Source of the DNA: Actinomycetota bacterium
GTDB lineage: Bacteria; Actinomycetota; Acidimicrobiia; Acidimicrobiales; Ilumatobacteraceae
Reading direction: 5' to 3'
DNA length: 64,000 nucleotides
Assembly (NCBI GenBank): GCA_037139095.1
Contig: JBAXHD010000008.1
Location: 16,781 to 80,780, forward strand
Positions 1,290 through 62,400 of this stretch are shown here, one piece after another (positions within the stretch are counted from its first letter, which is position 1; every line of letters starts with the position of its first letter). A program made the position numbers and the translations under genes. The notes below the pieces were generated by a model. It saw only the letters and a program-made list of their open reading frames with translations, ran no database searches and had not been told where the DNA came from.

Positions 1290-3005
1290 CTACAGATATT
1301 GACCTGTGGCCATGCGCTCGATCGAGCGTCCGCCTGCGAACGGAGTTTCGTTGCGGCCCTCGGCAACGAGCGTGCGGATAAACACGATGCGCTCGCCCTT
1401 CTTGCCGCTGATCTTGGCCCAGTCGTCGGGGTTGGTGGTGTTGGGCAGGTCTTCGTGCTCTTTGTATTCCTGCTTGATTGAGTCGAGCATGTCTTGGGTG
1501 CTGACACCCTTCACGCCGCCGGCAATGAGGCGCTTGATCGCCAACTTCTTGGCGCGGCGCACGATGTTTTCGATCATCGCCCCCGAAGCGAAATCCTTGT
1601 AATAGAGCACTTCTTTGTCCCCGTTTTGGTACGTGACTTCGAGGAACCGATTGGCTTCATCGTCGCGATACATCTCGTCGACAGTGCACTCGATCATGTC
1701 GGGGACCGATTCGTTGGGCGCGATGGGGATCTCGGTGGTGAGGTACTGCGCAAAAATCTGCTTGGCGGCAGCCTCGTTCGGTCGCTCGATCTTGATCTTC
1801 ACATCGAGACGGCCGGGGCGAAGAATGGCTGGATCGATGAGATCTTCGCGGTTGGTCGCACCGATCACGATGACGTTGCGCAAGCCCTCGACACCATCGA
1901 TCTCGGCGAGCAGCTGCGGCACGATGGTGCTCTCCATATCGGAGCTAATGCCAGTGCCACGGGTGCGGAACATGCTGTCCATTTCGTCGAAGAACACAAT
2001 GACGGGCCAGCCTTCTTCGCTCTTTTCGCGGGCTCGTTGGAACACGAGGCGAATCTGACGCTCGGTTTCGCCAACGTATTTGTTGAGCAGCTCGGGGCCT
2101 TTGATGTTGATGAAGTAGCTGCGGCCCTTGTCTCCCCCGGTGGCCGCCGCAACCTTCTTCGCCAAGCTGTTCGCAACCGCTTTGGCAATCAGCGTCTTGC
2201 CGCATCCTGGAGGGCCGTAGAGCAGAATGCCCTTCGGCGCTGGCAAGCGGTGCTCGGCAAAGAGTTCTTGATAGAGGTACGGAAGCTCGACAGCGTCGGC
2301 GATCTGCTCGATCTGGGTATCGAGACCGCCGATGTCAGCGTATGAAATGTCGGGCACTTCTTCGAGCAACAAATCTTCGACCTCGGGGCGGGCCAACTTC
2401 TCGAGCAGCATGTTGGTTCGCGGATCCATACGCAACGAATCGCCAGGTCGAAGGTGCATGCCTCGAATCGCGTCAGCAAGCTCGCAGATGCGTTCTTCGT
2501 CGGCGCGGCCTACCACAAGGGCGCGGATGCCGTCGTCGAGAATCTCTTTCACCGTGACGACTTCGCCGCTGATGTCGGGCTGGCGGGCCATCACCACGTT
2601 GAAGCTTTCGTTGAGCACCACTTCGGCGCCACGCTGCAACGATTCGTGGTCGATATCGGGATGCAGGCTGACCCGCATCTTGCGACCGCTGGATGCAATG
2701 TCGACGGTGCCGTCGTCGTTTTTGCCAACGACCACGCCGTAGGCCGACGGCGGTTGAGTGAGTTTGGCCACCTCGTCACGGAGTGACGAGATGTGTTCGC
2801 GGGCCTCACGGAGTGTGTAGCTGAGCTTCTCGTTCTGCGAGGTGAGGTGAGCAACTTGGCCCTTTGCCTCAAGGAGACGTTCGTCGAGGGCGCGCATGCG
2901 CTTGGGCGCGTCGACGAGTTTTTGACGTAGATGGCCGATCTCTTCTTCGAGCACGATTACCTGCGCCCGAAGAATGTCAGCTGCCTCGCTGTCGTTTGAT
3001 GTCAT
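1290..3005 (-). CDS. arc: Proteasome-associated AAA ATPase (ARC/Mpa)
   Basis: 571-aa ORF with an N-terminal coiled coil, Walker A GPPGCGKT and Walker [10 protein letters not shown]. The C-terminus ...ATGQYL is typical of Mpa/ARC. Starts at ATG 3005. Confidence 0.96.
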
Positions 3006-21669: not shown

Positions 21670-23469
21670 ATGTTCGGTGATCGGTTTGCAAAGTCAGCCA
21701 TGCGTTCGAGGTGGGCGGCAATTGGAGCCGCAGTAGCGGTGGCGTTTGGCGCTGGCGGCGTCGGATGGGTCGCTCATGCGACATCGGGCGCCTCGATCTC
21801 GTCGCTCGTCAATATTGCACCGTGTCGTCTGTTCGATACTCGCGGCGGCGGAGACACCGTGGGCGACCGGTCGACACCGCTTGGATCGGGCGAAACATTT
21901 GACCGGCAAGTGTGGGGCACCAATGGCGACTGCACAATCCCGTCGACTGCAACCGGCATTTCGTACAACCTCACTGTGCCTGACCCCATCGTTACTGGAT
22001 TCGTGAAGATCTATCCGGGCGACGCCGCCGTCCCGAACGCCAGCGCAATCAACCCGTCGGCTCTCTTGGGCACCAAGGCAAATGGCGGCATCGTCGGCCT
22101 GTCGGCTTCGGGCAGCATCAAGTTGTTCAACCAGGTCGGACCGCTGAACGCAATTCTTGACATCACCGGATACTTCGTTGGGGTCACGCCCGGCACCGCT
22201 GGCGCCCCTGGCGCGCTCGGTACGAACGGAACCAATGGAACGAACGGAACGAACGGCACCAACGGCACCAACGGCACGCCTGGAACCAATGGCACCAACG
22301 GCACCAACGGGACAAACGGCCTCGATGGCGTCAATGGTGTGAGCGGAGCCCAGTACGGCCGCGACATCGCCGCGGTTTCGGCGGTTGTGGCCGGGTCGCC
22401 CGGCGCCACGCCCAATGATGTGTCGATCACCGTGGGGGCCGATGGGTTCCCAGTGTTGGCGTTCCTTGTGCCCAACGATCCCCTGTTGCCGTTGAACGGC
22501 GAGTTGACCATCGTGAAGTGTCTCGACCCTGCATGCAACGCTCCTGTATTGCCAGTGGGCACGAGCTACACCGGATTACTGACTCATCTCACGTCCATAT
22601 CGATTGGCTCCGATGGAAACCCGGTGGTGGCATTCAGCGACACCCTTGGAGCGCTCAGTGTTACAAAGTGCGCTACGCCGAACTGCGTCAGCTTCGGACC
22701 CGCCCAGACGCTCGACCTCATCGCTGCGCTCGATCCGTCGATCACTGTCGGTGCTGATGGAAACCCAATCGTGTCGTACTACGACTCGTTGAATACATCG
22801 CTGAAAGTGGCACATTGTGCCGATGTGGACTGCCTTGTCGTAGACACACCGGTCACCGTTGACCCTGCCGTGGCAGATCCCACGGTGGACGCTGGGTCCT
22901 TTTCCTCGATCACGATTGGTGCCGATGGGAACCCTGTGATCTCGTATTACGACTTCGCCGGCTCTGTAAAGCTCGTGAAGTGCAGCGACGCTACCTGCGG
23001 CACGTACAGAGCTCCGGTCACGCTTGACGCATCAGCGCTTGGCAACACCTCAATTGCTATTGGTGTCGACGCCAATCCAGTGATCTCGTACGCCGATTTG
23101 AATAGCACGGCGCTGAAGGTTGTTCATTGCAGCAATCAAGCTTGCTCTGCTGCGGTTACGCCGGTCATCTTGGATGCCGCTGCCGGCGCAGTGTTCACAA
23201 CGTCATTGGCCATTAGCGCCGACGGCAATCCGTACGTGAGCTACACCAGTGGCGGCGACCTGAAGGTTGTCCGCTGCACGAACGTAGCGTGCACCACCAC
23301 GAAGGCACCGCTCACCGTGGACGCTACGGGTGGTGTTGGATCGCAGGCGATGACGATCGGCAGCGACGCCAACCCGGTGCTCGCATATGTTGACTCGGCT
23401 GTGACAGGCGACGTGAATGTGGCCAAGCTGACCCACAGCTCGTGGACTCCATACGGCTGGGGCCGCTAA
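21670..23469 (+). CDS. Secreted multidomain protein: signal peptide, actinobacterial lectin-like domain, collagen-like (GTN)n stalk and seven Cx4C repeat modules
   Basis: 599 aa. Signal-like segment MRSRWAAIGAAVAVAFGAGGVGWVAHA (the start may be 21700). The CRLFDTR...ILDITGYF domain recurs in many actinobacterial surface proteins. There are 18 G-X-Y triplets at aa 175-228, followed by 7 repeats of IGxDGNPVISY.D....LKVV.Cx4C. Confidence 0.8.
   Translation: MFGDRFAKSAMRSRWAAIGAAVAVAFGAGGVGWVAHATSGASISSLVNIAPCRLFDTRGGGDTVGDRSTPLGSGETFDRQVWGTNGDCTIPSTATGISYNLTVPDPIVTGFVKIYPGDAAVPNASAINPSALLGTKANGGIVGLSASGSIKLFNQVGPLNAILDITGYFVGVTPGTAGAPGALGTNGTNGTNGTNGTNGTNGTPGTNGTNGTNGTNGLDGVNGVSGAQYGRDIAAVSAVVAGSPGATPNDVSITVGADGFPVLAFLVPNDPLLPLNGELTIVKCLDPACNAPVLPVGTSYTGLLTHLTSISIGSDGNPVVAFSDTLGALSVTKCATPNCVSFGPAQTLDLIAALDPSITVGADGNPIVSYYDSLNTSLKVAHCADVDCLVVDTPVTVDPAVADPTVDAGSFSSITIGADGNPVISYYDFAGSVKLVKCSDATCGTYRAPVTLDASALGNTSIAIGVDANPVISYADLNSTALKVVHCSNQACSAAVTPVILDAAAGAVFTTSLAISADGNPYVSYTSGGDLKVVRCTNVACTTTKAPLTVDATGGVGSQAMTIGSDANPVLAYVDSAVTGDVNVAKLTHSSWTPYGWGR
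22219..22317 (+). repeat. Eleven tandem 9-bp units (GGN ACN AAY; one unit is GGC ACG CCT) encoding (Gly-Thr-Asn)n
   Basis: Read directly and in frame with the ORF: ggtacgaac ggaaccaat ggaacgaac ggaacgaac ggcaccaac ggcaccaac ggcacgcct ggaaccaat ggcaccaac ggcaccaac gggacaaac. Confidence 0.9.
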
Positions 23470-51757: not shown

Positions 51758-52531
51758 TCAGAACAAACGGTCGGCAGCCGGCGACGCGCTGACGTCGTGT
51801 GTCGCTGGCGAGCTATCGGTGTCGGCTGGCGCAATTAGTTCGGCGCCTTTGTTGCGAACGCTGTTCACTGCACTTGAGACCCGATGCATTGCGAGAATGT
51901 CGTTTGCGGCGGGACGCAGCAACTGAGCGAGCTGCTCGGCATCGTCGATCGCTGGGTCGAGCCACTCGTGCCACGCCGACGCCGGAAGAATTGCGGGCAT
52001 GCGATCGTGAACAGTCGACATCGTGTCGTTGGCCGCAGTGGTGATGATGGTGCAGCTGTGTAGCCACGGGCCATTAGTCGGCCCAGCCTTATCTCGCCAC
52101 GCAGTCCACAGCCCAGCAACCGCAAGTAGGTGGCCATCGGATCTATGGATGAACATCGGTTGTTTCACCGGCTTGCCTTTGGCGCTCAAGGCTGCGGCGG
52201 GCGCTGGGGCCTGCCATTCGTAGAACCCATCGATTGGGATGATGCACCGACGCTTGCGCAGTAGTCCTTTGAAGGAGGGCTTCTCATTGAGGGTCTCGGC
52301 ACGGGCGTTGATCATCGACGAACCGATCTTCGTGTCTTTCGCCCAGACGGGCACAAGGCCCCAATGAAAGGCGCGCACGGCTGGCTCTGGGCCGTCTTCG
52401 TTTACTACTGCGTAGACATCGGTGGTTGGCGCCACGTTGTAGTTCACGGGCAAGGGGTCGCCCTCGAACGAAGCGCCAAAGAAATCGGCTATCTGTTGAG
52501 GGGTGCTAGTAGAAACGACACGTCCACACAC
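51758..52531 (-). CDS. SOS response-associated peptidase (SRAP/YedK family)
   Basis: GTG 52531 is followed by Cys-Gly-Arg, giving the invariant (M)CGR N-terminus. Also contains YNVAPT, INARAET and DGFYEW. The longer annotated ORF extension is not needed. Confidence 0.85.
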   Translation of the reverse strand: MCGRVVSTSTPQQIADFFGASFEGDPLPVNYNVAPTTDVYAVVNEDGPEPAVRAFHWGLVPVWAKDTKIGSSMINARAETLNEKPSFKGLLRKRRCIIPIDGFYEWQAPAPAAALSAKGKPVKQPMFIHRSDGHLLAVAGLWTAWRDKAGPTNGPWLHSCTIITTAANDTMSTVHDRMPAILPASAWHEWLDPAIDDAEQLAQLLRPAANDILAMHRVSSAVNSVRNKGAELIAPADTDSSPATHDVSASPAADRLF

Positions 52532-52606
52532 GCTTCGTACCGTATCGGGTGGGTGACGTCGGCTACGTTTCTGACACGCCGTCAGATTTGAGAAGAGGAA
52601 GACGCA

Positions 52607-53779
52607 ATGACAGAACTCGGCTTTTTGCCCTTCGACGCAGACAACCATTACTACGAGGCAACCGACGCCTTTATTCGCCACATCGAGCCATCGATGGCGA
52701 AGCGATGCATGCAGTGGGTTGAGCTCGACGGTCGGCAGCGCTTGCTGGTTGGCGGCGCAATCAACCGGTTCATTCCGAACCCAACGTTTAACCCAGTCTC
52801 CAAGCCAGGCGCACTCGACTTGTACTTCCGCGGCAAGGTCGCTGGTTCAGATCTCAAGTCGATGTTCGGAGAGCTCGATCAGATCAGCCCCACCTACCGC
52901 GACCGTGATGCTCGCCTTGCGCTGATGACCGAGCAAGGGCTCGATGCTGCGTTCTTCTTCCCCACTCTGGGCGTCGGCATGGAAGAGTCGCTGAAGCACG
53001 ACATTCCGGCGTTGACCGCTGCGTTTCGCGCGTTCAACCGCTGGCTCGACGACGATTGGGGCTTCGCCTACAAGAACTCGATTTACGCTGCGCCCTACAT
53101 CACCTTGGCCGACCCGCAGTGGGCGCTCGACGAACTCAACTGGGCAATCGGTCGCGGCGTTCGCATCATCGTGATGCGCACAGCTCCGGTGCCCATCGCC
53201 GGCGGTCTCACCCGCTCCCCCGGCGACACGATGTACGACCCATTTTGGGCGCGTGCTGCCGAGGCTGGCGTCACGGTTGCGTTCCACTCAGGCGACGCTG
53301 GCTACGGCAAGTACATCGACGACTGGGAGCCCGGCGGCGCGTTCGAGGCGTTTAAGTTTTCGGCTCTACGCACCATCACCGGAGACCGCGCACCGTTCGA
53401 CATGTTTGCTGTGCTCGTGTGCCATGGCGTGTTCTCTCGGCACCCCGACCTTCGCTGCGCCAGCATTGAAGCCGGCAGCGAATGGGTGCAGCCCTTGCTC
53501 AAGAAGTTCAAGAAGGCTTACTCGCAGAACCCCTACATGTTCCCCAGCGATCCGATTCAGCAGTTCCGTGATCACGTGTGGGTGGCGCCGTTCTACGAAG
53601 ACGACATCCGTGGACTCGCCGACGCAATCGGTACCGAGCGCGTGTTGTTTGGCAGCGACTATCCGCACGCCGAGGGCCTCGCCGTGCCGGTTGCGTTCAT
53701 CAACGATCTGCACGGGTTCAACGACCAAGAGGTTCGCCTCATCATGCGCGACAACGCACGCGAACTGATCGGAGCCTGA
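52607..53779 (+). CDS. Amidohydrolase-2 family metal-dependent hydrolase
   Basis: 390 aa. A GAGGAAG-like RBS precedes ATG 52607. Has the FDADNHYYE N-terminal motif and FGSDYPHAEG near the C-terminus. Confidence 0.8.
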   Translation: MTELGFLPFDADNHYYEATDAFIRHIEPSMAKRCMQWVELDGRQRLLVGGAINRFIPNPTFNPVSKPGALDLYFRGKVAGSDLKSMFGELDQISPTYRDRDARLALMTEQGLDAAFFFPTLGVGMEESLKHDIPALTAAFRAFNRWLDDDWGFAYKNSIYAAPYITLADPQWALDELNWAIGRGVRIIVMRTAPVPIAGGLTRSPGDTMYDPFWARAAEAGVTVAFHSGDAGYGKYIDDWEPGGAFEAFKFSALRTITGDRAPFDMFAVLVCHGVFSRHPDLRCASIEAGSEWVQPLLKKFKKAYSQNPYMFPSDPIQQFRDHVWVAPFYEDDIRGLADAIGTERVLFGSDYPHAEGLAVPVAFINDLHGFNDQEVRLIMRDNARELIGA

Positions 53780-53781
53780 TC

Positions 53782-54660
53782 ATGGCCATGCCCGCAGTTG
53801 GTCCCGGCGGCCTCGGCATCATCGAAACGATGATGGGATTCCCCGACCCAGATCCTCGTCATCTGTATGAGTTCTTCCGCCCCAACATCAAAGATGTGGC
53901 CAGCAAAGAGACCATGTTCCCGGTGGAGTACTTGTTTAAGGGCAACGTTCCCGGCGCCATGCCCGAAACCCTCGATCCCATCGAGGTAGCCATCAACACG
54001 ATGGACCATTTCGGTATTGAGCGTTCGCTCATCGGCATCGAGGGCGAGGTTGGGCAAAAGGCGATGCGTCTGCACCCAACGCGTTTCATTCCATCGCTGT
54101 CAGCCGACGGCAACAAAGGCGTCGACGAAGTTCGCAAGATTCGTCGCGCTCACGAAGAGTTCGGGCTGAAGGCCGTAGGCACCTTCCCCGCTGGCTGCCA
54201 TCCGCAGATCCCTATCGATCACGCGCGCTGGTATCCCATCTATTCGGTGTGCGCCGAACTCGGCATCCCCATTTTCATTTGTGCAGGCATTCCCGGGCCA
54301 CGTTTGCCGAGTATGTGTCAGCACGTAGAACTGCTCGACATTGTTTGCTACGACTTCCCTGAGCTCAACATCGTGACCCGCCACGGCTGCGAGCCGTGGA
54401 CCGAGCTGGCCGTGAAACTCATGCTCAAGTGGCCGAACCTGTACTACAGCACCAGCGCTTTTGCGCCGCAGCATTACAACCAGCGCATCATCGATTACGC
54501 CAACACCCGTGGCGCCGACAAGATCATCTACGCCGGCTATTGGCCGATGGGTCTCACTTACGAACGCATCATGGGCGACATGCCCAAGGTTCCGTTTAAA
54601 GATCACGTGTGGCCCAAGTTCTTGCGCGAAAACGCTATGCGGGTGCTCGGCCTCGACTGA
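53782..54660 (+). CDS. Amidohydrolase-2 family protein (second copy)
   Basis: Start at Met69 of ORF 53578..54660, 2 nt after the upstream stop. 292 aa with a TIM-barrel amidohydrolase pattern (VTRHGCEPW, YYSTSAF). Confidence 0.75.
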   Translation: MAMPAVGPGGLGIIETMMGFPDPDPRHLYEFFRPNIKDVASKETMFPVEYLFKGNVPGAMPETLDPIEVAINTMDHFGIERSLIGIEGEVGQKAMRLHPTRFIPSLSADGNKGVDEVRKIRRAHEEFGLKAVGTFPAGCHPQIPIDHARWYPIYSVCAELGIPIFICAGIPGPRLPSMCQHVELLDIVCYDFPELNIVTRHGCEPWTELAVKLMLKWPNLYYSTSAFAPQHYNQRIIDYANTRGADKIIYAGYWPMGLTYERIMGDMPKVPFKDHVWPKFLRENAMRVLGLD

Positions 54661-54685
54661 GGGTTGGAGCGCGCGATATGCGGCG

Positions 54686-56188
54686 CTACCCCACGGCCCA
54701 TGTGTTCACGGCGTATGCGCCGTTGGCGTTGACCTGCACCACTGCATCAGAAGTAACCACTGGCGTGCCCGAGGTGGTCGCGCTCTTGAGACGCAGCACG
54801 AGTTGAGTCACCACTTCAGACACTCCTACCTTGAACTTGGCTGGGCTGTCACCGGGAACCTCGATAGTTCGAGCCAAGACTCCACCGTCGAAGTTGATCG
54901 AATCCTTGACTCCTAGTCCGGCGCCAATCGAGATCAGAAAGCGGCCCTGTGGCACGTCGACATAACCGGGCACCGAGATGGTGGTGGCAGTGCCCTGGGT
55001 GAGATTGACCTCAACGATCGCCGAGTTATCAGGCACTGCAGGAACCAACGTAGAAGGCCGATACTTGTTGAGCGTTGCGGCGCCAAACGTGGTGGCGCCG
55101 GTGGGCGCCAGCGAATAGGGCACGTACAACACGCCCGACTGGTCGAGGTCTTGGATCGAGTTGCTCAGGTTCGAACTCGGGAGCAAGCCATTTACCGACA
55201 TGATGTTCACGGTTGCCGACGGCAAGTTGTTCGTGTCGGTAGAACTCACGTAGCGCTGGTTAAACACCAAGCTGATCGAGTCGGTCGCAGCGCCGGTGTA
55301 CGGCACGGAGTTCTTCACCACGAGGCGTCCGGTCATGCCGAACACAAAGGTTGCTCCGAGTCCGGTGATGTTATGCGTAGCTGGCGCGTTCACTGCGTAG
55401 AACGCAGCGAACTGGTCGGTGGTACAACCATCAACGCCACCGCCCCCGACGACAACATTTGCGTTGTCGGTAATGGTCACCGAGTTTTCGAAGTAATAGA
55501 TGCCTGAGGTGAAATAGACCGGTGTCGATCCAGAGATCACGATGGGGTCAACATAGGTGCCAGGGAAATACACCTTGCAGGCGTCGAACCCGTCGGGCAT
55601 GACGTAGGCAGTGGCCGAACGTGGACTCAGCGCATGCACCGGAAGGTTCTGCGACCATATGGTGTCAATCGTTCGGGTCAGGCTGATTGCGTTGCGCCAT
55701 GCTCGAGTATCGCTTTGCCCCGAACCCGGGTACACCGAGTGAACGTTGGCGGCCGATGGCGTATAGGCCGCCGGGAGCGGCACTCCAACTTGTAGCGAGG
55801 TGGCGCCGTACGGGCGCTTCGTTGCGTCTTCGGAATAGTTCACTGCCATCAGCGCACAGGTCGTTGCTACCGGTACCCGCAACGATGGGCTAGCGAGCGC
55901 TGGGTTGAGGCTCACTCCGGCTTTGTCTTGGTTGCACGCTTTGAAGAGCGCCACCGGGTCAGCAAGAGCAGTGCGCAGGCCACCCTTCACCGCTTCGAGT
56001 CGCTGCGCTTTGTTGTCCACGAGTCGACTCGCCCTGGTAACGGTCACCGCGTAGGTGAGCATTGGGGTAACGATCAATGTCGCCACGATGATGACCACCA
56101 ACGACAAGATCAGCGCAGACCCCTCGTCGCTGTTACCGCACTCACGCGCCAAGCGAAGTGCCTCGAGTCTGCGTCTGACCAGGTTCAT
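54686..56188 (-). CDS. Pilus-associated protein with a pilin-like leader but no Glu5 (500 aa)
   Basis: Start taken at ATG 56188, forming an ATGA overlap with the stop of the 910-aa gene. The longer ORF 54686..56563 would overlap that gene by 379 nt. The leader MNLVRRRLEALRLARECGNSDEG is followed by SALILSLVVIIVATLIVTPML. The remainder is Gly/Thr/Val/Asn-rich, beta-rich and has no TM. Confidence 0.7.
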   Translation of the reverse strand: MNLVRRRLEALRLARECGNSDEGSALILSLVVIIVATLIVTPMLTYAVTVTRASRLVDNKAQRLEAVKGGLRTALADPVALFKACNQDKAGVSLNPALASPSLRVPVATTCALMAVNYSEDATKRPYGATSLQVGVPLPAAYTPSAANVHSVYPGSGQSDTRAWRNAISLTRTIDTIWSQNLPVHALSPRSATAYVMPDGFDACKVYFPGTYVDPIVISGSTPVYFTSGIYYFENSVTITDNANVVVGGGGVDGCTTDQFAAFYAVNAPATHNITGLGATFVFGMTGRLVVKNSVPYTGAATDSISLVFNQRYVSSTDTNNLPSATVNIMSVNGLLPSSNLSNSIQDLDQSGVLYVPYSLAPTGATTFGAATLNKYRPSTLVPAVPDNSAIVEVNLTQGTATTISVPGYVDVPQGRFLISIGAGLGVKDSINFDGGVLARTIEVPGDSPAKFKVGVSEVVTQLVLRLKSATTSGTPVVTSDAVVQVNANGAYAVNTWAVG

Positions 56189-58917
56189 AGGGTCACCGTC
56201 TGCACGCACGACACGGCCTCGTTGGCCGCCACCTTGACTCGAATACCCGAAAAGATCGGACTCGCAGTGGGCACGAGTGTGAACGTTCGATTCGTGACAC
56301 CTGCTTTGCAGCTCCATGTCCCCGATTTGTAACTCGACAAGCCAGAAAGGTTCTGCGGTTGGATCTCGACGGTTTGGTAGGTGCCGTCGCTGATGTTGAG
56401 GTCGAAGGTGCCACTCGAGAACTGCTTCGTCGTAGTGATCACCGTCATGTCGGATACCAACGGCTTGCCGGCCGAGTCGGTGAGCGCCGTCTTTTGGTAG
56501 GTGAACGGATCTGCGGCCGACGTACTGCCCACCTTGGTTTGCAAGGTCAATGTGCCGCCGCACTGCGAGAGCGCGATGGTCTGTAGCGCAAGGCCGAAGT
56601 TGGTGTAGTCGGGCGAGATATACATGTTGGCGGTGAGCGCATTGGTGTACTTGCCATTGACCAGTGTTGCGGGCACGCCGGTATCTGAGTTGGCCACCAG
56701 CCGCGACAAGATCTGGGCGCCAGTGACCGTAGATGTCACTGGCGAGTCGTATGCCGTGTACGGCAGGCTGTACTGCTTGGCCGATCTGGTCCAGCTGGAA
56801 TCGGTGCTGCTGTAACCAGTACCTGTGGTGTCTACGGGATCCGAGAGCGAGTACGGCGACGTATAGCTCTTACCGGTCCAGCCATCGGTGGAGTCGGTGT
56901 CGGGCGCTCCAGGATTCATCACGGAATAGATGCTCTGGTTGGTAACGGTGGGTGAAGCGTTTGTGGTCCACGATGTTGTTGGGTTGGCGATGGCTGGGTC
57001 TGTCAAGTTGACCGACCGGGCAAATGAATACGGCGCACTGAATGCGGCGCGTGATGAGCTTGACAGTGACGTCGATGATGTCGCCGACGTGTTGATCTCC
57101 CAATACGTGTAGGGCGATGTGTACAGGCGCCCGGCAGACCAACCGTCGCTGCCGTCGCTCACCGAATTCGCTGCGATGTCTTGGGCAGTGAACAAGGTCA
57201 GGTTGGTCGAACCCGACGAAGGCGCCGTCCATGTGGTGGCCATGTCTTGCGATGCAATTGCGCTGGCGCTCAGCGACGTCTTCGACAAGCGGAAGGGCGA
57301 TGTAAAACGGAGGCGTCGTTGGCCATTTGAGGTGCCGAGTGTGCTATTCGAAGTCGCTGACGAATCGTCGACCCACACAGGCGAACTCGTGCTGCCCGTG
57401 TTCTTCTCCATGTGGTACCAACGCGTCATCGTGGTGTCGGCGTGGTATCCCTTTTCGATGTGGTAGTAGCGCGAGTATGCGAGGTGATAGCTGTGTGTGT
57501 AGTTGTAGTGGTAGCCAGGGATGCTTGAGATCCACGTTTGGTTACCGCTGACGCCCGGACCAACGCCCACTCCGATGAAGCGTGTGCTGTCGCGGAATGC
57601 GGCCGCAATGAGGTTCGCTCGGTCGAAGCCTTGCTGCTGGTAGTTGCCGTTCATTGTCGTTGAGTAGCCAGGCTGAGCGAGAGGCGGTTCTGCGGGGATC
57701 GAGCTCGAAGAGTTGTTCAAACGCGAGTTGGTCGGAACACCGTCTGTAAAGAACACCACCATCCCGGGGAGGTCTTGCGCCACCGTTCCGTCTGCGTTGT
57801 AGAACGTGCGGAACATCGCATCTTCCCAGTTGGTATATCCAGCTGGGTATGTCATGTTCGTTACTTCGTTCAACAACGCATTGGACTCAGTGCTGTTGAG
57901 CATGTTGTACGACATCGTCCATGTGGGCGATGTTGCGCCGACCGTGCTTGCGACGGTGTCGAAGGGAACAAGCTTCAATCGCACCGGTGTACCGACAAAC
58001 ATGGTCACGAATTGGCCAACAGCTGTTTTGATCTTGGCGAAGTCGGTAGATCCGATTGAGCCCGATCGGTCGATGATCAACGTGATCGAGCCGCCGCACA
58101 GCGAGCGAGCGGCAATCAACGACGGCGCTCCTTGCATGCTGGTCGAGTCAATCAAAGTGCGGTTCGTGCCACCCGCGCTGAGGCTGATCTGATTCGTCCC
58201 GCCGCCGGCGCCTGCCGACTTGCCGCCGCCGTTCACGGTAACGACAACTCGCTGTGCGTTCTTGACGGCAACGGCTGATGCCGAGCCCGCGATGGTGGTG
58301 ACTGTTGGATCGATTGCTAGGGGATCCGGCGGGGTGCTGACTTTGATAATCCAGTCGGGCACGGTGACACCTGCAGTGAACACACCGTCTGGTGGAGCAT
58401 CGAGATTGTGCAATACAACACTGGCTCGACAGGTGACCGCGCCCTCGGTCTGATCGCACTGCACTCGAATGAGTTGGTACTCGCTACCGACCAGTACATA
58501 GCGGTATGACACCTGTGTCAGGCGTGTGACCGACTGTCCGCTGGCGTTGGCCACGAGAGTGCTCCACGAGAGCATCATCGCGTTGGAGCCACCGACATCG
58601 GCCCCAGGTGGGCAGGCTCCGAAACAGGAATTGATACCCGGAGAGGTGTCGACGTTCTGACCCGCTGACGCAAGATCGCCTGGGATCCACAGACCCGCCC
58701 CGTTCTCGGCGCGGGCGTTGTTGAGTCGGCCGTTGCCCGTGGACTGCTGATTCATAATGACCACAACCGCTCCGGAAAGCGCTGTGACGAGCACACCTGT
58801 GAGAGCGATCGAGATGAGCAACTCCACCAGCGTCATTCCCTCGTCGCGGCGGGGATCTCGATTGGTGAAGTGTTTGCGGAATTGGCGCAAGAGACGGACG
58901 AATGGGTGTCTACACAT
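56185..58917 (-). CDS. Giant modular type IV pilin-like protein with an internal vWA (MIDAS) domain
   Basis: 910 aa. The leader ...DPRRDEG is followed by MTLVELLISIALTGVLV, a prepilin cleavage/methylation motif with Glu5. The vWA domain covers aa ~275-455 (DNA 57553-58095) with DRSGS (D283/S285/S287), T362 and D392 (FFTDGVPT). It is followed by a Ser/Thr/Tyr/Trp-rich region and a C-terminal beta-rich domain. Confidence 0.8.
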   Translation of the reverse strand: MCRHPFVRLLRQFRKHFTNRDPRRDEGMTLVELLISIALTGVLVTALSGAVVVIMNQQSTGNGRLNNARAENGAGLWIPGDLASAGQNVDTSPGINSCFGACPPGADVGGSNAMMLSWSTLVANASGQSVTRLTQVSYRYVLVGSEYQLIRVQCDQTEGAVTCRASVVLHNLDAPPDGVFTAGVTVPDWIIKVSTPPDPLAIDPTVTTIAGSASAVAVKNAQRVVVTVNGGGKSAGAGGGTNQISLSAGGTNRTLIDSTSMQGAPSLIAARSLCGGSITLIIDRSGSIGSTDFAKIKTAVGQFVTMFVGTPVRLKLVPFDTVASTVGATSPTWTMSYNMLNSTESNALLNEVTNMTYPAGYTNWEDAMFRTFYNADGTVAQDLPGMVVFFTDGVPTNSRLNNSSSSIPAEPPLAQPGYSTTMNGNYQQQGFDRANLIAAAFRDSTRFIGVGVGPGVSGNQTWISSIPGYHYNYTHSYHLAYSRYYHIEKGYHADTTMTRWYHMEKNTGSTSSPVWVDDSSATSNSTLGTSNGQRRLRFTSPFRLSKTSLSASAIASQDMATTWTAPSSGSTNLTLFTAQDIAANSVSDGSDGWSAGRLYTSPYTYWEINTSATSSTSLSSSSRAAFSAPYSFARSVNLTDPAIANPTTSWTTNASPTVTNQSIYSVMNPGAPDTDSTDGWTGKSYTSPYSLSDPVDTTGTGYSSTDSSWTRSAKQYSLPYTAYDSPVTSTVTGAQILSRLVANSDTGVPATLVNGKYTNALTANMYISPDYTNFGLALQTIALSQCGGTLTLQTKVGSTSAADPFTYQKTALTDSAGKPLVSDMTVITTTKQFSSGTFDLNISDGTYQTVEIQPQNLSGLSSYKSGTWSCKAGVTNRTFTLVPTASPIFSGIRVKVAANEAVSCVQTVTL

Positions 58918-59419
58918 CGCTCTTCACCACCTGCAGAGATTTTTTGATTTTTCCGTCGGGACTTGTGACCGTGATCGTCACGAGTTGAACTGCAAGGTCG
59001 GCAGGCGCAGATTGGGTTGTGAGACAAGCAAGGTCGGCCCATTGGCCTTCGGTGCTTGCAGTTGCGCCAGGAACAAAGTGTTGCTGAAGAACTGACGTTG
59101 TAGTGGCATCCCACCCGTTGGTCTGTGCCGCAGCCTGCGCATACAACGTGTAATCGCAACTCTTTGGCGCACGGTTCACGCGGTCGGCTGCATTCTGGAG
59201 CACGGTCTCAACCGCTGACATGTTGGTGTTCAATCGGCCAGCTGTGATCGTGGACATCACCGCGTTCAAGGTCGGAACCATGATGATCGCCATGATCGTG
59301 ATGGTCATCACGATCTCAACCAACGAGAATCCAGCGTCAGCGCTCTCGGTGTCGCAGCGCACAGCCTCATCGCGGGCGTACATGAGCCAGGAGCGTGTGC
59401 CGCTCTTGTCATGCTTCAT
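58910..59419 (-). CDS. Small type IV pilin/pseudopilin-like protein
   Basis: The maximal ORF is 58910..59446 with a GTG start. ATG 59419 has the only weak SD-like sequence (AGGACGGG), and ATG 59383 is also possible. The leader ends ...ESADAG and is followed by FSLVEIVMTITIMAIIMVP with Glu5. The ~140-aa mature part has 2 Cys. Its stop overlaps the next gene's start by 8 nt. Confidence 0.75.
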   Translation of the reverse strand: MKHDKSGTRSWLMYARDEAVRCDTESADAGFSLVEIVMTITIMAIIMVPTLNAVMSTITAGRLNTNMSAVETVLQNAADRVNRAPKSCDYTLYAQAAAQTNGWDATTTSVLQQHFVPGATASTEGQWADLACLTTQSAPADLAVQLVTITVTSPDGKIKKSLQVVKSDV

Positions 59420-59551
59420 ACGACGCCCGTCCTGTTCGCACGCCACAGCCGATCTGTGGCACCACTAATTCATCGGTATCTGCGTTGCAGACTTGAGGCA
59501 TTTCAGCATCGCGCTGGACTTTGAAGGCCCCATTCGGCAATCCTGCATCCA

Positions 59552-60457
59552 ATGCTCGAGCGTGTTTGCCCCCTATGTCGAGGCTCCTTGCGCGTCTCTG
59601 AGCGCGTCTATGCGTGCGTCACCTGCACTGAGAGCTATTCCCGGGTTGACAACATCGATCTGTTCTTGCCTGCGGCGCGGGTGGCGCACTTCGAGCAATT
59701 CCTGAACGATTACACGACAGTGCGACTCGCTGAGGGCCGCGCCAGCGATGACCCCGAATACTTCAGACGGTTGCCCGAGACCGCACCTGGAGCACCGTTG
59801 GAGTGGCAGTGGAACATGCGAAGTCGGTCGTGGCGCACCGTGCGGTCGCGCGTGTTTCGTCCTCGGACGCAGTCGCTCGTTGTCGTCGATGTTGGAGCCG
59901 GAGTCGGCTGGCTGTCGAACCGACTCACTGAGCTCGGCCACGAGGCTCTGGCAGTCGACCTCACGATTGACCCTCACGATGGTCTTGGCGCTGCTCGCCA
60001 CTATCAACACAAGTTCTCGTGCTCTCAGGCCGAGATGGACGCCTTGCCCTTCCCAGATGCCAGTGCAGATGTCGTGATCTACAACGCCAGCCTGCATTAC
60101 TCATGCGATTACGCCGTCACGCTCGCCGAAGCGCTGCGAGTGCTCAAGTCCACAGGCCGAATCGTGGTCATGGACTCCCCCATCTACCGACAACGCTCCG
60201 CCGGCGAGGCGATGATTGCCGAGCGGCACGCCGATTTCGAGCAGCGGTTCGGATCGCGATCCGACTCCGTGCCGTCGGTTGGATATCTCACGCCACACAT
60301 GCTGCACGATCTGGCCCTGAGCCTCGGTCTCCGTTGGCGCAGGCATCACACCTGGTACGGCTGGCAGTGGGCGTGGAAGCCGTGGCGAGCCCGCCTACGC
60401 GGCAAGCGTCAGCCAAGCCGATTCGTGGTGCTCGTCGCCAAGCGTGTGGGTCCGTAA
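59552..60457 (+). CDS. Class I SAM-dependent methyltransferase with an N-terminal Zn-ribbon
   Basis: 301 aa. CPLC...CVTC ribbon, SAM motif I VVDVGAGVGWLS and motif post-I ALAVDL. Confidence 0.85.
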   Translation: MLERVCPLCRGSLRVSERVYACVTCTESYSRVDNIDLFLPAARVAHFEQFLNDYTTVRLAEGRASDDPEYFRRLPETAPGAPLEWQWNMRSRSWRTVRSRVFRPRTQSLVVVDVGAGVGWLSNRLTELGHEALAVDLTIDPHDGLGAARHYQHKFSCSQAEMDALPFPDASADVVIYNASLHYSCDYAVTLAEALRVLKSTGRIVVMDSPIYRQRSAGEAMIAERHADFEQRFGSRSDSVPSVGYLTPHMLHDLALSLGLRWRRHHTWYGWQWAWKPWRARLRGKRQPSRFVVLVAKRVGP

Positions 60458-60475
60458 GCGACTCCATAAAGCATC

Positions 60476-60496
60476 AGCGCACGCTTACCGTGCGCT
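60476..60496 (+). terminator. Hairpin 19 nt after the methyltransferase stop
   Basis: 8-bp stem AGCGCACG / CGTGCGCT with a 5-nt loop. No U-tract. Confidence 0.35.
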
Positions 60497-60540
60497 AGCG
60501 CTTCGTGGGACCGAGCAACCCGGTAGCGGCCAGGTGGCTA

Positions 60541-60572
60541 AAAAGCAAAAGGGCCACCCTTGCGGATGGCCC
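60541..60572 (-). terminator. Rho-independent terminator downstream of tRNA-Pro
   Basis: The minus strand reads GGGCCAtccgcaagggTGGCCC followed by TTTTGCTTTT, 16 nt after the tRNA 3' end. Confidence 0.65.
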
Positions 60573-60588
60573 CTGACCTGCTACTTCG

Positions 60589-60665
60589 TGGTCGGGCTGG
60601 CGGGATTTGAACCCACGACCCCTTGTCCCCCAGACAAGTGCGCTACCAAGCTGCGCTACAGCCCG
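60589..60665 (-). tRNA. tRNA-Pro (anticodon GGG), CCA encoded
   Basis: Hand-folded 77-nt cloverleaf. Acceptor stem CGGGCTG/CAGCCCG, D stem GCGC/GCGC, anticodon stem CTTGT/ACAAG with loop CTGGGGG, T arm GTGGG-TTCAAAT-CCCGC, discriminator A and CCA. Confidence 0.93.
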
Positions 60666-60746
60666 TTGTTACGGAATGGCCAGCGTAGCGGATGCCGTTG
60701 CAACCACCCACGCCAAAAGCCGATGAGAGTTCTACTGCGTCGATGC

Positions 60747-61007
60747 CTAGCGAAAGAGCTGCACGATGCGGTACACGAAGTACAACACCAGCAGTACCAT
60801 CAGCAGCTTGAAGTGCCACGGGGCCTTCATGTCTTCGTCGGCGTCGTCTCCGGCAGCCAATTTGCGAAGGTCGAGATTCTTAGCCGTGATTGGCGTCTTC
60901 GGTACCTGCGCCTCAAGGCTTCGCCCGCATGTTGGACAGTTGCCATCTTCGGTCATAGCCGATGGCGCGAAGTACTTGGCGCAGTCTTCACACCAGGGCA
61001 TGCGCAC
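60747..61007 (-). CDS. Small Zn-ribbon protein with a C-terminal TM anchor
   Basis: 86 aa. CEDC...CPTC ribbon, an acidic linker, then WHFKLLMVLLVLYFVYRIV. Lies 37 nt downstream of der on the same strand. Confidence 0.5.
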   Translation of the reverse strand: MRMPWCEDCAKYFAPSAMTEDGNCPTCGRSLEAQVPKTPITAKNLDLRKLAAGDDADEDMKAPWHFKLLMVLLVLYFVYRIVQLFR

Positions 61008-61044
61008 TCCTGAGATCGGTGATTGTCATGGCCATGCTCGAACG

Positions 61045-62400
61045 CTATTCGGTGCGGCGACGAACACGAAGTTTCAGCGGCGTAGAACCGAAGTCGAACG
61101 CTTCGCGAATGCTGCGCTCGAGATACCGCAGATACGTGTGCGGCAGTTCGCGGTTCACGAACAACGTGAAGGTCGGCGGGTCGGTGGCTCCCTGCATCGC
61201 GTAGAGCACCTTGGTGCCGCCCGGTGCTGGCTGCTTTTGCTGAGCCGCGGCGATCACTTTGTTCACGTCGCGTGTCGGCACGCGCCGGTGGTACTGCACG
61301 ATGGCTTCTTTGAGTACTGGCGCCAACTTGTTGACACCTTTGCCGCTGAGCGCAGAGATCTTCAGAATGGGAGCGTCGCCGATGAAGCCCAGCTTGCGCT
61401 TAACCTCGGCCAAAATGTCGAGGCGCCGCTCGGCGTCGTCGATCAGTTCCCACTTGTTGAGCAGCAGCACGATTGGGCATCCGGCAGCATCGACACGCTC
61501 GGCCAAACGCTGGTCTTGGCCGGTAATGCCTTCGGTGGCATCGATGACAAACAGCGCGATGTCGGCGTCGTCGATGGCGCGAAGCGCTCGAACTAACGAG
61601 TAGTACTCGGCCGAGTCGTCGATCTTCGAGCGGCGGCGCATACCTGCGGTGTCGACGAACACGATGGGACCGTCTTCGGTCTCGACCAATGTGTCGATGG
61701 CATCGCGCGTGGTGCCAGGCATGTCGTGAACCACAGAGCGATTCTCTCCAACCAACCGGTTGAACAGAGTGCTCTTGCCCACGTTTGGTCGCCCCACAAC
61801 AGCAACGCGCGGCGCTGCTTGCTCTGGCGGTGTCCAGTTTTCGTCGTCTTCGAGCAGGGCTTCGACAATGCCTGCCGGGCTGACATCGGGGATGCGAGCA
61901 ATAACTTCGTCGAGCAGATCGCCGGCGCGACGGCCATGCAGCGCGCTGACTGGCAAGGGCTCGCCAAGGCCGAGCGACAGGAACTCCCAACGCGCCCCTT
62001 CTCGTTGATCGTTGTCGGCCTTGTTGACCACCAGCAGCACGGGAGGCTTAATGCGGCGCAGCCAGATAGCAATCTGCTCGTCATCGTCGGTGACGCCCAC
62101 AGAGCCATCGACGAGGAACATCACCAACGATGCGCGCCGTACGGCGGCTTCTACTTGGCGGCTGACCTTGTCGTCGAGCTCGCTGCCGGACGGCAACCAG
62201 CCGCCAGTATCGACCAACGTAAACGGTCGCCCAAGCCATTCGGCCTCGACCTCTTTGCGGTCGCGAGTAACGCCCGGACGGTCTTCGACGATGGCCACTT
62301 GCTCACCCACAATGCGGTTGAACAAGGTGCTCTTGCCCACGTTTGGGCGGCCAACAATCACCACGCTTGGCAGTTCGGGGGCTTCATCTACTTCGGTCAT
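61045..62400 (-). CDS. der: Ribosome-biogenesis GTPase Der (EngA)
   Basis: 451 aa. Two G domains (GRPNVGKST twice, DTGG/DTAG, NKAD/NKWE) and a KH-like C-terminus. Confidence 0.97.
   Translation of the reverse strand: MTEVDEAPELPSVVIVGRPNVGKSTLFNRIVGEQVAIVEDRPGVTRDRKEVEAEWLGRPFTLVDTGGWLPSGSELDDKVSRQVEAAVRRASLVMFLVDGSVGVTDDDEQIAIWLRRIKPPVLLVVNKADNDQREGARWEFLSLGLGEPLPVSALHGRRAGDLLDEVIARIPDVSPAGIVEALLEDDENWTPPEQAAPRVAVVGRPNVGKSTLFNRLVGENRSVVHDMPGTTRDAIDTLVETEDGPIVFVDTAGMRRRSKIDDSAEYYSLVRALRAIDDADIALFVIDATEGITGQDQRLAERVDAAGCPIVLLLNKWELIDDAERRLDILAEVKRKLGFIGDAPILKISALSGKGVNKLAPVLKEAIVQYHRRVPTRDVNKVIAAAQQKQPAPGGTKVLYAMQGATDPPTFTLFVNRELPHTYLRYLERSIREAFDFGSTPLKLRVRRRTE

Follow-up and report, generated by a model that had tools for sequence, protein, structure and literature searches.

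What does a protein do that begins like a type IV pilin and continues with a von Willebrand factor A (vWA) domain in an actinobacterium, and with which partners does it act? This question is raised by a 910-amino-acid (aa) protein encoded in a 64-kb stretch of contig JBAXHD010000008.1 from an Actinomycetota bacterium (hereafter the window). An original prediction, read from the translation, had divided this protein into a leader, a pilin helix, a globular region with two cysteine pairs, a vWA domain with all positions of the metal ion-dependent adhesion site (MIDAS), a region rich in Ser, Thr, Tyr and Trp, and a beta-rich C-terminal domain. All of these modules were recovered in our analysis. 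The gene, referred to here as gene 2, almost certainly encodes a prepilin-type vWA protein. Its identity as a pilin gene holds, but it does not stand alone; it is the middle member of a three-gene pilin cassette. Gene 2 is probably a type IV minor pilin with an adhesive role within a tip cassette; in the reading that fits best, the cassette provides a complex that would prime a retractile type IVa pilus or form its tip and would present a metal-dependent adhesin.

Gene 2 is located at 56185..58917 (stop codon included) and starts with ATG. The original prediction had this open reading frame (ORF) right but left its strand unstated; it is encoded on the minus strand, as are all cassette features described below, and reading this interval on the plus strand gives a translation riddled with stops. 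At least 310 homologues were found in a word-indexed search, indicating a real gene and not a chance ORF. The leader (aa 1-27; 58837..58917) is a class III signal peptide with a terminal Asp-x-Gly motif (RRDEG) and is followed by MTLVE, which puts a Glu at mature position 5 (E32; hereafter Glu5), such that the prepilin site consists of DEG followed by MTLVELLISIALTGVLV. This region is matched by the Pfam model N_methyl (PF07963; 25.0 bits against a cut-off of 21.2, aa 23-47) and the NCBIfam model TIGR02532 (IV_pilin_GFxxxE; 17.7 bits against a cut-off of 16.3). In an alignment of 65 members of the gene 2 family (A1), Gly at -1 is present in all 55 sequences that reach the cleavage site and Asp at -3 in 53 of these, while the mature N-terminus has Thr+2 in 58, Leu+3 in 64, and Glu+5 in all 65 members. 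Such conservation of Gly-1, Asp-3, and Glu5 is the pattern of a prepilin-peptidase substrate, not of a generic membrane anchor.

The pilin module (aa 28-270; 58108..58836) is composed of the alpha1 helix, a beta-sheet, two cysteine pairs, and a connector. Both cysteine pairs, namely C98/C102 (SCFGAC) and C154/C163, are invariant among the 65 homologues. The structure of gene 2 was predicted by AlphaFold2 with alignment A1 (mean predicted local distance difference test score [pLDDT] 81.9; predicted template modeling score [pTM] 0.60). In this model, the leader (aa 1-25) is disordered with pLDDT below 50, and it is followed by a 55-residue alpha1 helix (aa 30-84; pLDDT 64-78 over most of its length) and a four-stranded antiparallel sheet (strands at aa 111-123, 129-143, 146-157, and 160-172), with pLDDT in blocks of the module mostly at ~75-92. 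The helix and sheet together correspond to a predicted canonical pilin fold. When the family profile was compared with Protein Data Bank (PDB) sequences, the N-terminus matched geopilin and PilA chains.

The vWA domain (aa 271-458; 57544..58107) was supported by three kinds of search. Pfam PF00092 matched aa 278-404 with 31.9 bits against a cut-off of 23.8, and the MIDAS is complete: D283-x-S285-x-S287 (IIDRSGS), T362 (GYTNW), and D392 (FFTDG) are all present, and these five residues are invariant among the 65 homologues. The family profile found the vWFA domain of an Aeromonas adhesin (9das; 1.1e-7) and the integrin alpha-X I domain (6e-4) among PDB sequences, the best matches being the Aeromonas adhesin, ITIH4, and integrins. 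The AlphaFold2 model has an alpha/beta vWA domain at aa 276-452, in which the FIGVGVG segment predicted to close the domain is modelled as a strand (aa 446-452). A Foldseek search of this model against PDB returned 187 matches with E ≤ 1e-3, mostly to von Willebrand factor A1-A3, integrin I, TRAP/MIC2, anthrax receptor, Aeromonas adhesin vWFA, and SpaC; the vWA matches have a probability of 1.0 and TM scores of ~0.55-0.58 normalised to the target. Sequence profiles and structure searches thus agree on this assignment. With N_methyl and VWA in one polypeptide, gene 2 is a modular type IV pilin in the sense of Raynaud et al. (2021).

The region downstream of the vWA domain (aa 459-775; 56593..57543) is rich in Ser, Thr, Tyr, and Trp and variable in length; its composition is 18% Ser, 15% Thr, and 7% Tyr, as the original prediction had noted in general terms. 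GYH hairpin motifs and two units of the DGW..Y.SPY repeat occur in it, and the number of DGW repeats varies from zero to six across the homologues. In homologues of 640-780 aa, the entire repeat region is absent, with the pilin module, vWA domain, and C-terminal domain retained. When gene 2 is compared with its homologue in locus L010, the repeat region has 41% identity and a length difference of 100 residues, whereas the other modules have 65-75% identity. This region is the most divergent and fastest-evolving part of gene 2. The model is confident here, with beta-rich and mixed structure (aa 459-780; pLDDT 73-95), and no family or PDB match was found for aa 459-775 by Pfam or by Foldseek against PDB. 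We read the region as a variable spacer or stalk, or as an accessory binding surface.

The C-terminal domain (aa 776-910; 56188..56592) opens with a CGG motif (C786) and is all-beta in the model (strands within aa 788-909; pLDDT 83-93), in agreement with the predicted beta-rich end of the protein; we describe it as a predicted beta-sandwich. The short motif reported to recur at the entries of the vWA and C-terminal domains is real (SLCGGSITL at aa 272-280 and SQCGGTLTL at aa 784-792), and C274-G275-G276 and C786-G787 are invariant. Eight cysteines are invariant in alignment A1 (98, 102, 154, 163, 274, 786, 870, and 904). Six of these have obvious local partners, namely the CxxxC pair 98/102, the hairpin pair 154/163, and the pair 870/904 in the last domain. 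By elimination, the remaining two may form a long-range C274-C786 disulfide, which would tie together the points at which the vWA and C-terminal domains begin.

Gene 2 is flanked by two further genes with Asp-x-Gly leaders. Gene 1 (58910..59419) encodes a small minor pilin of 169 aa as called in public contigs, and its ORF extends to a GTG at 59446. It has the prepilin site ADAG/FSLVE with Glu5, two invariant Cys, a Pfam N_methyl match (22.6 bits against a cut-off of 21.2), and a TIGR02532 match. Asp-3, Gly-1, and Glu5 are invariant in 31 gene 1 homologues, and the gene 1 profile matched only pilin N-termini among PDB sequences. Gene 3 (54686..56188) encodes a pilin-like protein of 500 aa with an Asp-x-Gly leader and no Glu5; its N-terminus reads SDEG followed by SALILSLVVIIVATLIV (DEG/SALIL). 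Among gene 3 homologues, Asp-3 and Gly-1 are present in 69 of 69, and position +5 is L, F, I, M, or V in 72 of 72, never Glu. The AlphaFold model of gene 3 (pLDDT 90.2; pTM 0.82) has a pilin-like alpha1 helix (aa 22-76) and a beta-rich body of ~400 aa. For this body, no significant match was found in Pfam, NCBIfam, PDB sequences, PDB folds, or BFVD folds, and the fold and profile searches gave only insignificant traces of beta-helix, tailspike, or pectate-lyase-like proteins. Many gene 3 paralogues in other genomes have an additional C-terminal discoidin (F5/8 type C) or fn3 domain. Because Glu5 is never present, gene 3 can be likened to the cap subunits GspK and PilX, and we regard it as a candidate cap subunit.

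The three genes form one translationally coupled operon with gene 2 in the middle. The gene 1 stop overlaps the gene 2 start by 8 nucleotides (nt), and the gene 2 stop overlaps the gene 3 start by 4 nt (ATGA). The cassette thus encodes three co-translated proteins with Asp-x-Gly leaders, of which two have Glu5 and the third never does. The unit is kept intact, with 88-90% identity, in related genomes. We extended this comparison by tblastn over 87 sources, consisting of 85 fetched loci, locus L086, and the window. Gene 1 is found beside gene 2 in 85 of the 87 sources and gene 3 in 77, and most of the missing cases are loci truncated at contig ends. These counts indicate that the triplet is a conserved unit.

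The orthologous cassettes occur in two main settings, and the first of these connects them to a pilus machine. About 24 loci, or about a quarter of those fetched, are located at most 10 kb from pilus machinery. Within this distance of a cassette, we found pilT in 23 loci, pilB in 22, a Peptidase_A24 prepilin peptidase in 20, and pilC in 15; a small major-pilin-like protein of ~111 aa with GFTLVELLIVIVILGILA is present in 29 loci. The arrangement is exemplified by L086, in which an N_methyl pilin is followed by gene-1, gene-2, and gene-3 types, a DUF429 gene, a T2SSE ATPase (383 aa), Peptidase_A24, a T2SSF platform protein, an MshEN+T2SSE ATPase (578 aa), and a 436-aa protein. The gene-2 type of L086 (P0029; 864 aa) has the full architecture, is a member of alignment A1, and has 39% identity over 97% of the query. 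The 383-aa ATPase belongs to the PilT/PilU family (443 bits against the TIGR01420 cut-off of 319), and the 578-aa ATPase is PilB/GspE-like, scoring 531 bits on the GspE model and 529 bits on the PilB model, both below cut-offs. The platform protein is GspF/PilC-like according to NCBIfam, and the gene-1 orthologue has a weak, below-cut-off match to PilV (TIGR02523; 3.4e-6). Orthologous cassettes are thus genetically linked to a type IVa machine with a retraction ATPase. Two other genes in L086 were also found repeatedly. The 436-aa protein (L086 20617-21927, minus strand), which has no family assignment, adjoins pilB and recurs in 10 loci, and the DUF429 protein (L086 14769-15488, minus strand) adjoins pilT and recurs in 23 loci; it is possible that both are lineage-specific components of the Acidimicrobiia pilus machine.

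The second setting, to which the window belongs, is the interval between der (engA) and the SRAP gene. About 30 loci (L004, L006, L031, L079, and others, with the window included) have from one to three divergent cassettes at this site. The interval (~52500-62400 in the window; also seen in L004, L005, L006, L031, and L079) is a conserved insertion site for cassettes in Acidimicrobiia, and in L004 and L065 the site has a small major-pilin-like gene as well. We clustered the first 440 mature residues of the gene 2 family by the unweighted pair group method with arithmetic mean. Most machinery-linked copies cluster together, with a second small group, while paralogues from a single der-site locus fall in different clusters; the copy in the window groups with those of L008-L012. 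The gene 2 family has thus diversified into several paralogous cassette types.

The original prediction considered such a protein unusual in an actinobacterium. This does not hold for its distribution, as a scan of GTDB species genomes found 178 loci that encode the gene 2 family, which is common and conserved across Acidimicrobiia; it does hold for the literature, in which nothing on the family has been studied and our search for Acidimicrobiia type IV pili found nothing relevant. In a HMMER scan of 1.84 billion cluster representatives at 50% identity, 590 gene 2 clusters reached E ≤ 1e-3, of which 132 reached E ≤ 1e-30. Nearly all sources are Acidimicrobiia or unplaced Actinomycetota metagenome-assembled genomes (MAGs) from water and soil, and the annotations of the homologues include "hypothetical" and "VWA domain-containing". 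For the taxonomy of the family, we relied on how most records are labelled (Acidimicrobiales, Ilumatobacteraceae) and on actinobacterial markers found in the window. Six cassette contigs (L009, L080, L017, L049, L051, and L074) have record titles of the form "Ferrithrix thermotolerans DSM 19514 isolate ..." or "uncultured Bifidobacterium sp.", which are probably taxonomic mislabels of MAGs. The gene 2 family is an uncharacterised family restricted to Acidimicrobiia and consists of four-part vWA pilins in a conserved, duplicable three-gene cassette. The design of a vWA-bearing pilin is already known from Streptococcus, and the kind of system is not new. Raynaud et al. counted more than 1,200 modular pilins, which fall into 264 architectures, and the combination of pilin and vWA is among the 15 most frequent of these (PMC8179133).

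The closest functional analogue of gene 2 is PilB of S. sanguinis, but orthology between the two is not supported. In PilB, a vWA domain is grafted on a pilin; the protein binds Mg/Mn and host proteins and has been modelled at the pilus tip (PMC8179133; PMC9934059). Both systems are found in monoderm hosts, and both PilB and gene 2 have a class III signal peptide with Glu5 and a small pilin module followed by a vWA domain with complete MIDAS. Each is accompanied by two further minor pilins, one without Glu5 and one modular, and for both complexes, the tip is the only position predicted to accommodate them. However, processed PilB is 50.5 kDa, while gene 2 with 910 aa is twice as large, its vWA domain being followed by two further modules, the variable repeat region and the C-terminal beta domain. 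The subunit that lacks Glu5 is the small one in S. sanguinis (PilA; PMC9934059) but the 500-aa protein in the cassette. Moreover, the companion module is a lectin in the PilA-PilB-PilC set, whereas the fold of the gene 3 module has no known relatives. The family profile matched 39 PDB sequences at E ≤ 10, none of which is a PilB chain, and PilB is also absent from the 50 best of the 187 Foldseek matches, such that the vWA graft in gene 2 looks independent.

The cassette also resembles the GspI-J-K and PilV-W-X sets, which have the same small-medium-large gene order and a last, largest subunit with an extra domain and without Glu5. The weak PilV match of a gene-1 orthologue is in line with this resemblance, and the corresponding role would be priming and capping (PMC9934059; PMC7541494). 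A difference is that the adhesin of the cassette is built into a pilin instead of being a separate PilY1. For gene 3, the absence of Glu5 fits the GspK/PilX class, but similarity to GspK or PilX in sequence or fold was not found: the Foldseek matches of gene 3 to GspK in PDB (3ci0_K, E = 4.3 over 51 columns) and to 5vtm_X (E = 6.0 over ~50 columns) are not significant, and only one of 72 gene 3 homologues matched PilX_N (E = 0.018). More generally, the sequence and fold searches gave nothing significant for GspJ or GspK.

Other vWA-bearing pilus proteins were considered as relatives of gene 2. PilY1/PilC of diderm type IVa pili, some of which have an N-terminal vWA domain, likewise place such a domain at a type IVa tip together with minor pilins, the tip position being a predicted one for the cassette. 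PilY1 is defined by the C-terminal beta-propeller IPR008707 (PMC8179133); in gene 2, no PilY1 beta-propeller was found in Pfam or NCBIfam at E ≤ 1, and gene 2 has its own prepilin signal and is itself a pilin. SpaC and RrgA are vWA-based pilus adhesins of Gram-positive bacteria as well, but they belong to the unrelated sortase assembly system, whereas gene 2 has a prepilin N-terminus. Gene 2 has neither an LPXTG motif nor a C-terminal anchor (it ends in VSCVQTVTL), and the Foldseek match to SpaC is through the vWA domain only. TadG pseudopilins are similar in being large pilus-associated proteins with an N-terminal hydrophobic helix, and, according to the original prediction, TadG proteins also carry vWA domains. 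Gene 2 was rejected as a TadG/Flp-type pseudopilin, as it has no Tad/TadE domain and has a GFxxxE/N_methyl signal, and the linked machinery is PilB/PilC/PilT and not TadA/B/C.

In the mechanism that we infer, gene 2 would be a low-abundance subunit of a type IVa pilus, made together with genes 1 and 3. The models for this mechanism are GspI-J-K and PilV-W-X (PMC9934059), the minor pilins of M. xanthus with PilY1 (PMC7541494), and PilA-B-C of S. sanguinis (PMC8179133; PMC9934059). The A24 prepilin peptidase would cut all three proteins after Asp-x-Gly, and their N-terminal helices would pack in the membrane as a staggered complex with gene 3 at the top and genes 2 and 1 beneath. Lacking Glu5, gene 3 could not neutralise a subunit above it and is therefore placed uppermost. 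This complex would prime polymerisation of the small major pilin by PilB/PilC, and having primed it, the complex would end at the pilus tip. There, external ligands would be bound by the gene 3 module and by the MIDAS of the vWA domain (with Mg2+ or Mn2+), and PilT would then retract the filament. We also advance, tentatively and with more doubt than confidence, a broader proposal: that Acidimicrobiia have a self-contained and duplicable tip cassette for one retractile type IVa machine, with one to three divergent copies at the der-SRAP site plus copies beside the machinery, giving one filament with alternative adhesive heads. With such a cassette, a tip complex would be defined for the first time in an actinobacterial type IV pilus, and the I-J-K cap would be solved in a new way.

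Several observations weigh against a metal-dependent adhesin at a pilus tip. The tip position is argued from analogy and steric reasoning, no assignment to the GspJ/PilW class was reached for the gene 2 pilin module, and the Gly/Ala-rich connector that precedes the vWA domain (aa ~200-271) has low confidence in the model. A complete MIDAS does not prove metal-dependent ligand binding, because inactivation of the MIDAS in S. sanguinis PilB did not abolish binding of fibronectin and fibrinogen in vitro (PMC8179133). In addition, the 64-kb window contains none of the genes pilB, pilC, pilD, and pilT and no major pilin gene; a motif search of the window found no other prepilin motif, PilB/PilT Walker motif, or A24 peptidase motif, and no separate H-type subunit is present. 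The cassette sits alone between der and the SRAP gene among housekeeping genes.

The isolation of this copy is the basis for one rival explanation, in which the N-terminus is left unprocessed and gene 2 is a membrane-anchored surface vWA protein, for example in a relic cassette cut off from its machinery. A related concern was that the N-terminus could be an uncleaved transmembrane anchor unrelated to pilins. Gly-1, Asp-3, and Glu5 are nevertheless strictly kept in der-site and machinery-linked copies alike, the overlapping stops and starts of the three-gene unit are intact at the identities given above, and orthologous cassettes adjoin pilus machinery. We consider this explanation very improbable. 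Another rival accepts a processed pilin but assigns the cassette to a non-adhesive filament, either a secretion pseudopilus or a competence (DNA-uptake) pilus, in which the large modules would handle substrates. The linked small pilin weakly matches the GspG (1.8e-9) and ComGC (6e-8) models, the PilB-like ATPase of L086 scores equally on the GspE and PilB models, and some homologues are named PulJ or PulG by the Joint Genome Institute (JGI). What speaks against such a filament is the bona fide PilT-family retraction ATPase in the linked clusters; to our knowledge, competence (Com) and type II secretion systems characteristically lack PilT. Also, the ComGA and ComGB models score far below the PilB/GspE and GspF/PilC models, and no ComEA or ComEC gene is present in the neighbourhoods seen. 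Overall, a secretion or competence function seems quite unlikely.

The remaining rival retains the tip or priming complex but holds that the vWA domain serves mainly in surface or force sensing or in assembly control, as in Pseudomonas PilY1, with ligand binding as a secondary role. Two reports implicate the vWA modules of PilY1 in surface sensing (PMC9210963; PMC8806160), minor-pilin/PilY1 complexes prime assembly in Myxococcus (PMC7541494), and the pilB deletion mutant of S. sanguinis is non-piliated (PMC8179133). Nevertheless, an invariant and complete MIDAS is typical of ligand-binding vWA domains, the discoidin and fn3 modules gained by gene 3 paralogues point to binding functions for the cassette, and no signalling partner was found in any neighbourhood examined. 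A mainly sensory or regulatory vWA domain is therefore unlikely in our view, and we favour gene 2 as an adhesive minor pilin of the tip cassette.

The surroundings of the cassette in the window are those of a conserved chromosomal site. On one side are a DUF512 radical-SAM gene, der, a tRNA-Pro gene, and a methyltransferase gene; on the other side are amidohydrolase genes, the SRAP gene, and a GT4 glycosyltransferase gene. The tRNA-Pro(GGG) gene (60589-60665, minus strand), situated ~1.1 kb upstream of the cassette, has der and the methyltransferase gene as its neighbours. The GC content of the cassette is 57-59%, compared with 61% in the flanks. The case for a horizontally acquired island is weak, since the site and its synteny are conserved across the class despite the lower GC content and the nearby tRNA-Pro. 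Elsewhere in the window, a proteasome ATPase-like ORF (1290-3005), read from the sequence, is an actinobacterial marker. A gene at 21670-23469 (plus strand) encodes a 599-aa predicted secreted protein that has a run of GTNGTNGTNG collagen-like triplets, followed by about eight repeats of ~45 aa with I(T/A)(V/I)G(A/S)DGNPV and often a Cys-bearing segment. This may be a beta-propeller or a repeat surface protein.

Hardly any study has addressed type IV pili in high-GC monoderm bacteria. Acidimicrobiia abound in freshwater, marine, and soil communities, and most of them are uncultured. The cassette overturns no existing concept, and it provides a solid lead into the tips of actinobacterial type IV pili. 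The modular pilin principle, shown for PilB in S. sanguinis, now extends to a much larger subunit with four parts and to an entire class of Actinomycetota, and the putative tip complex that the cassette defines has one predicted metal-dependent adhesin and one module of unmatched fold. According to one report, Myxococcus has several alternative minor-pilin/PilY1 sets per genome (PMC8833165). The presence of multiple paralogous cassettes suggests exchangeable pilus heads, as proposed for those sets, and the cassette is a testable handle on how Acidimicrobiia attach to particles or other cells.

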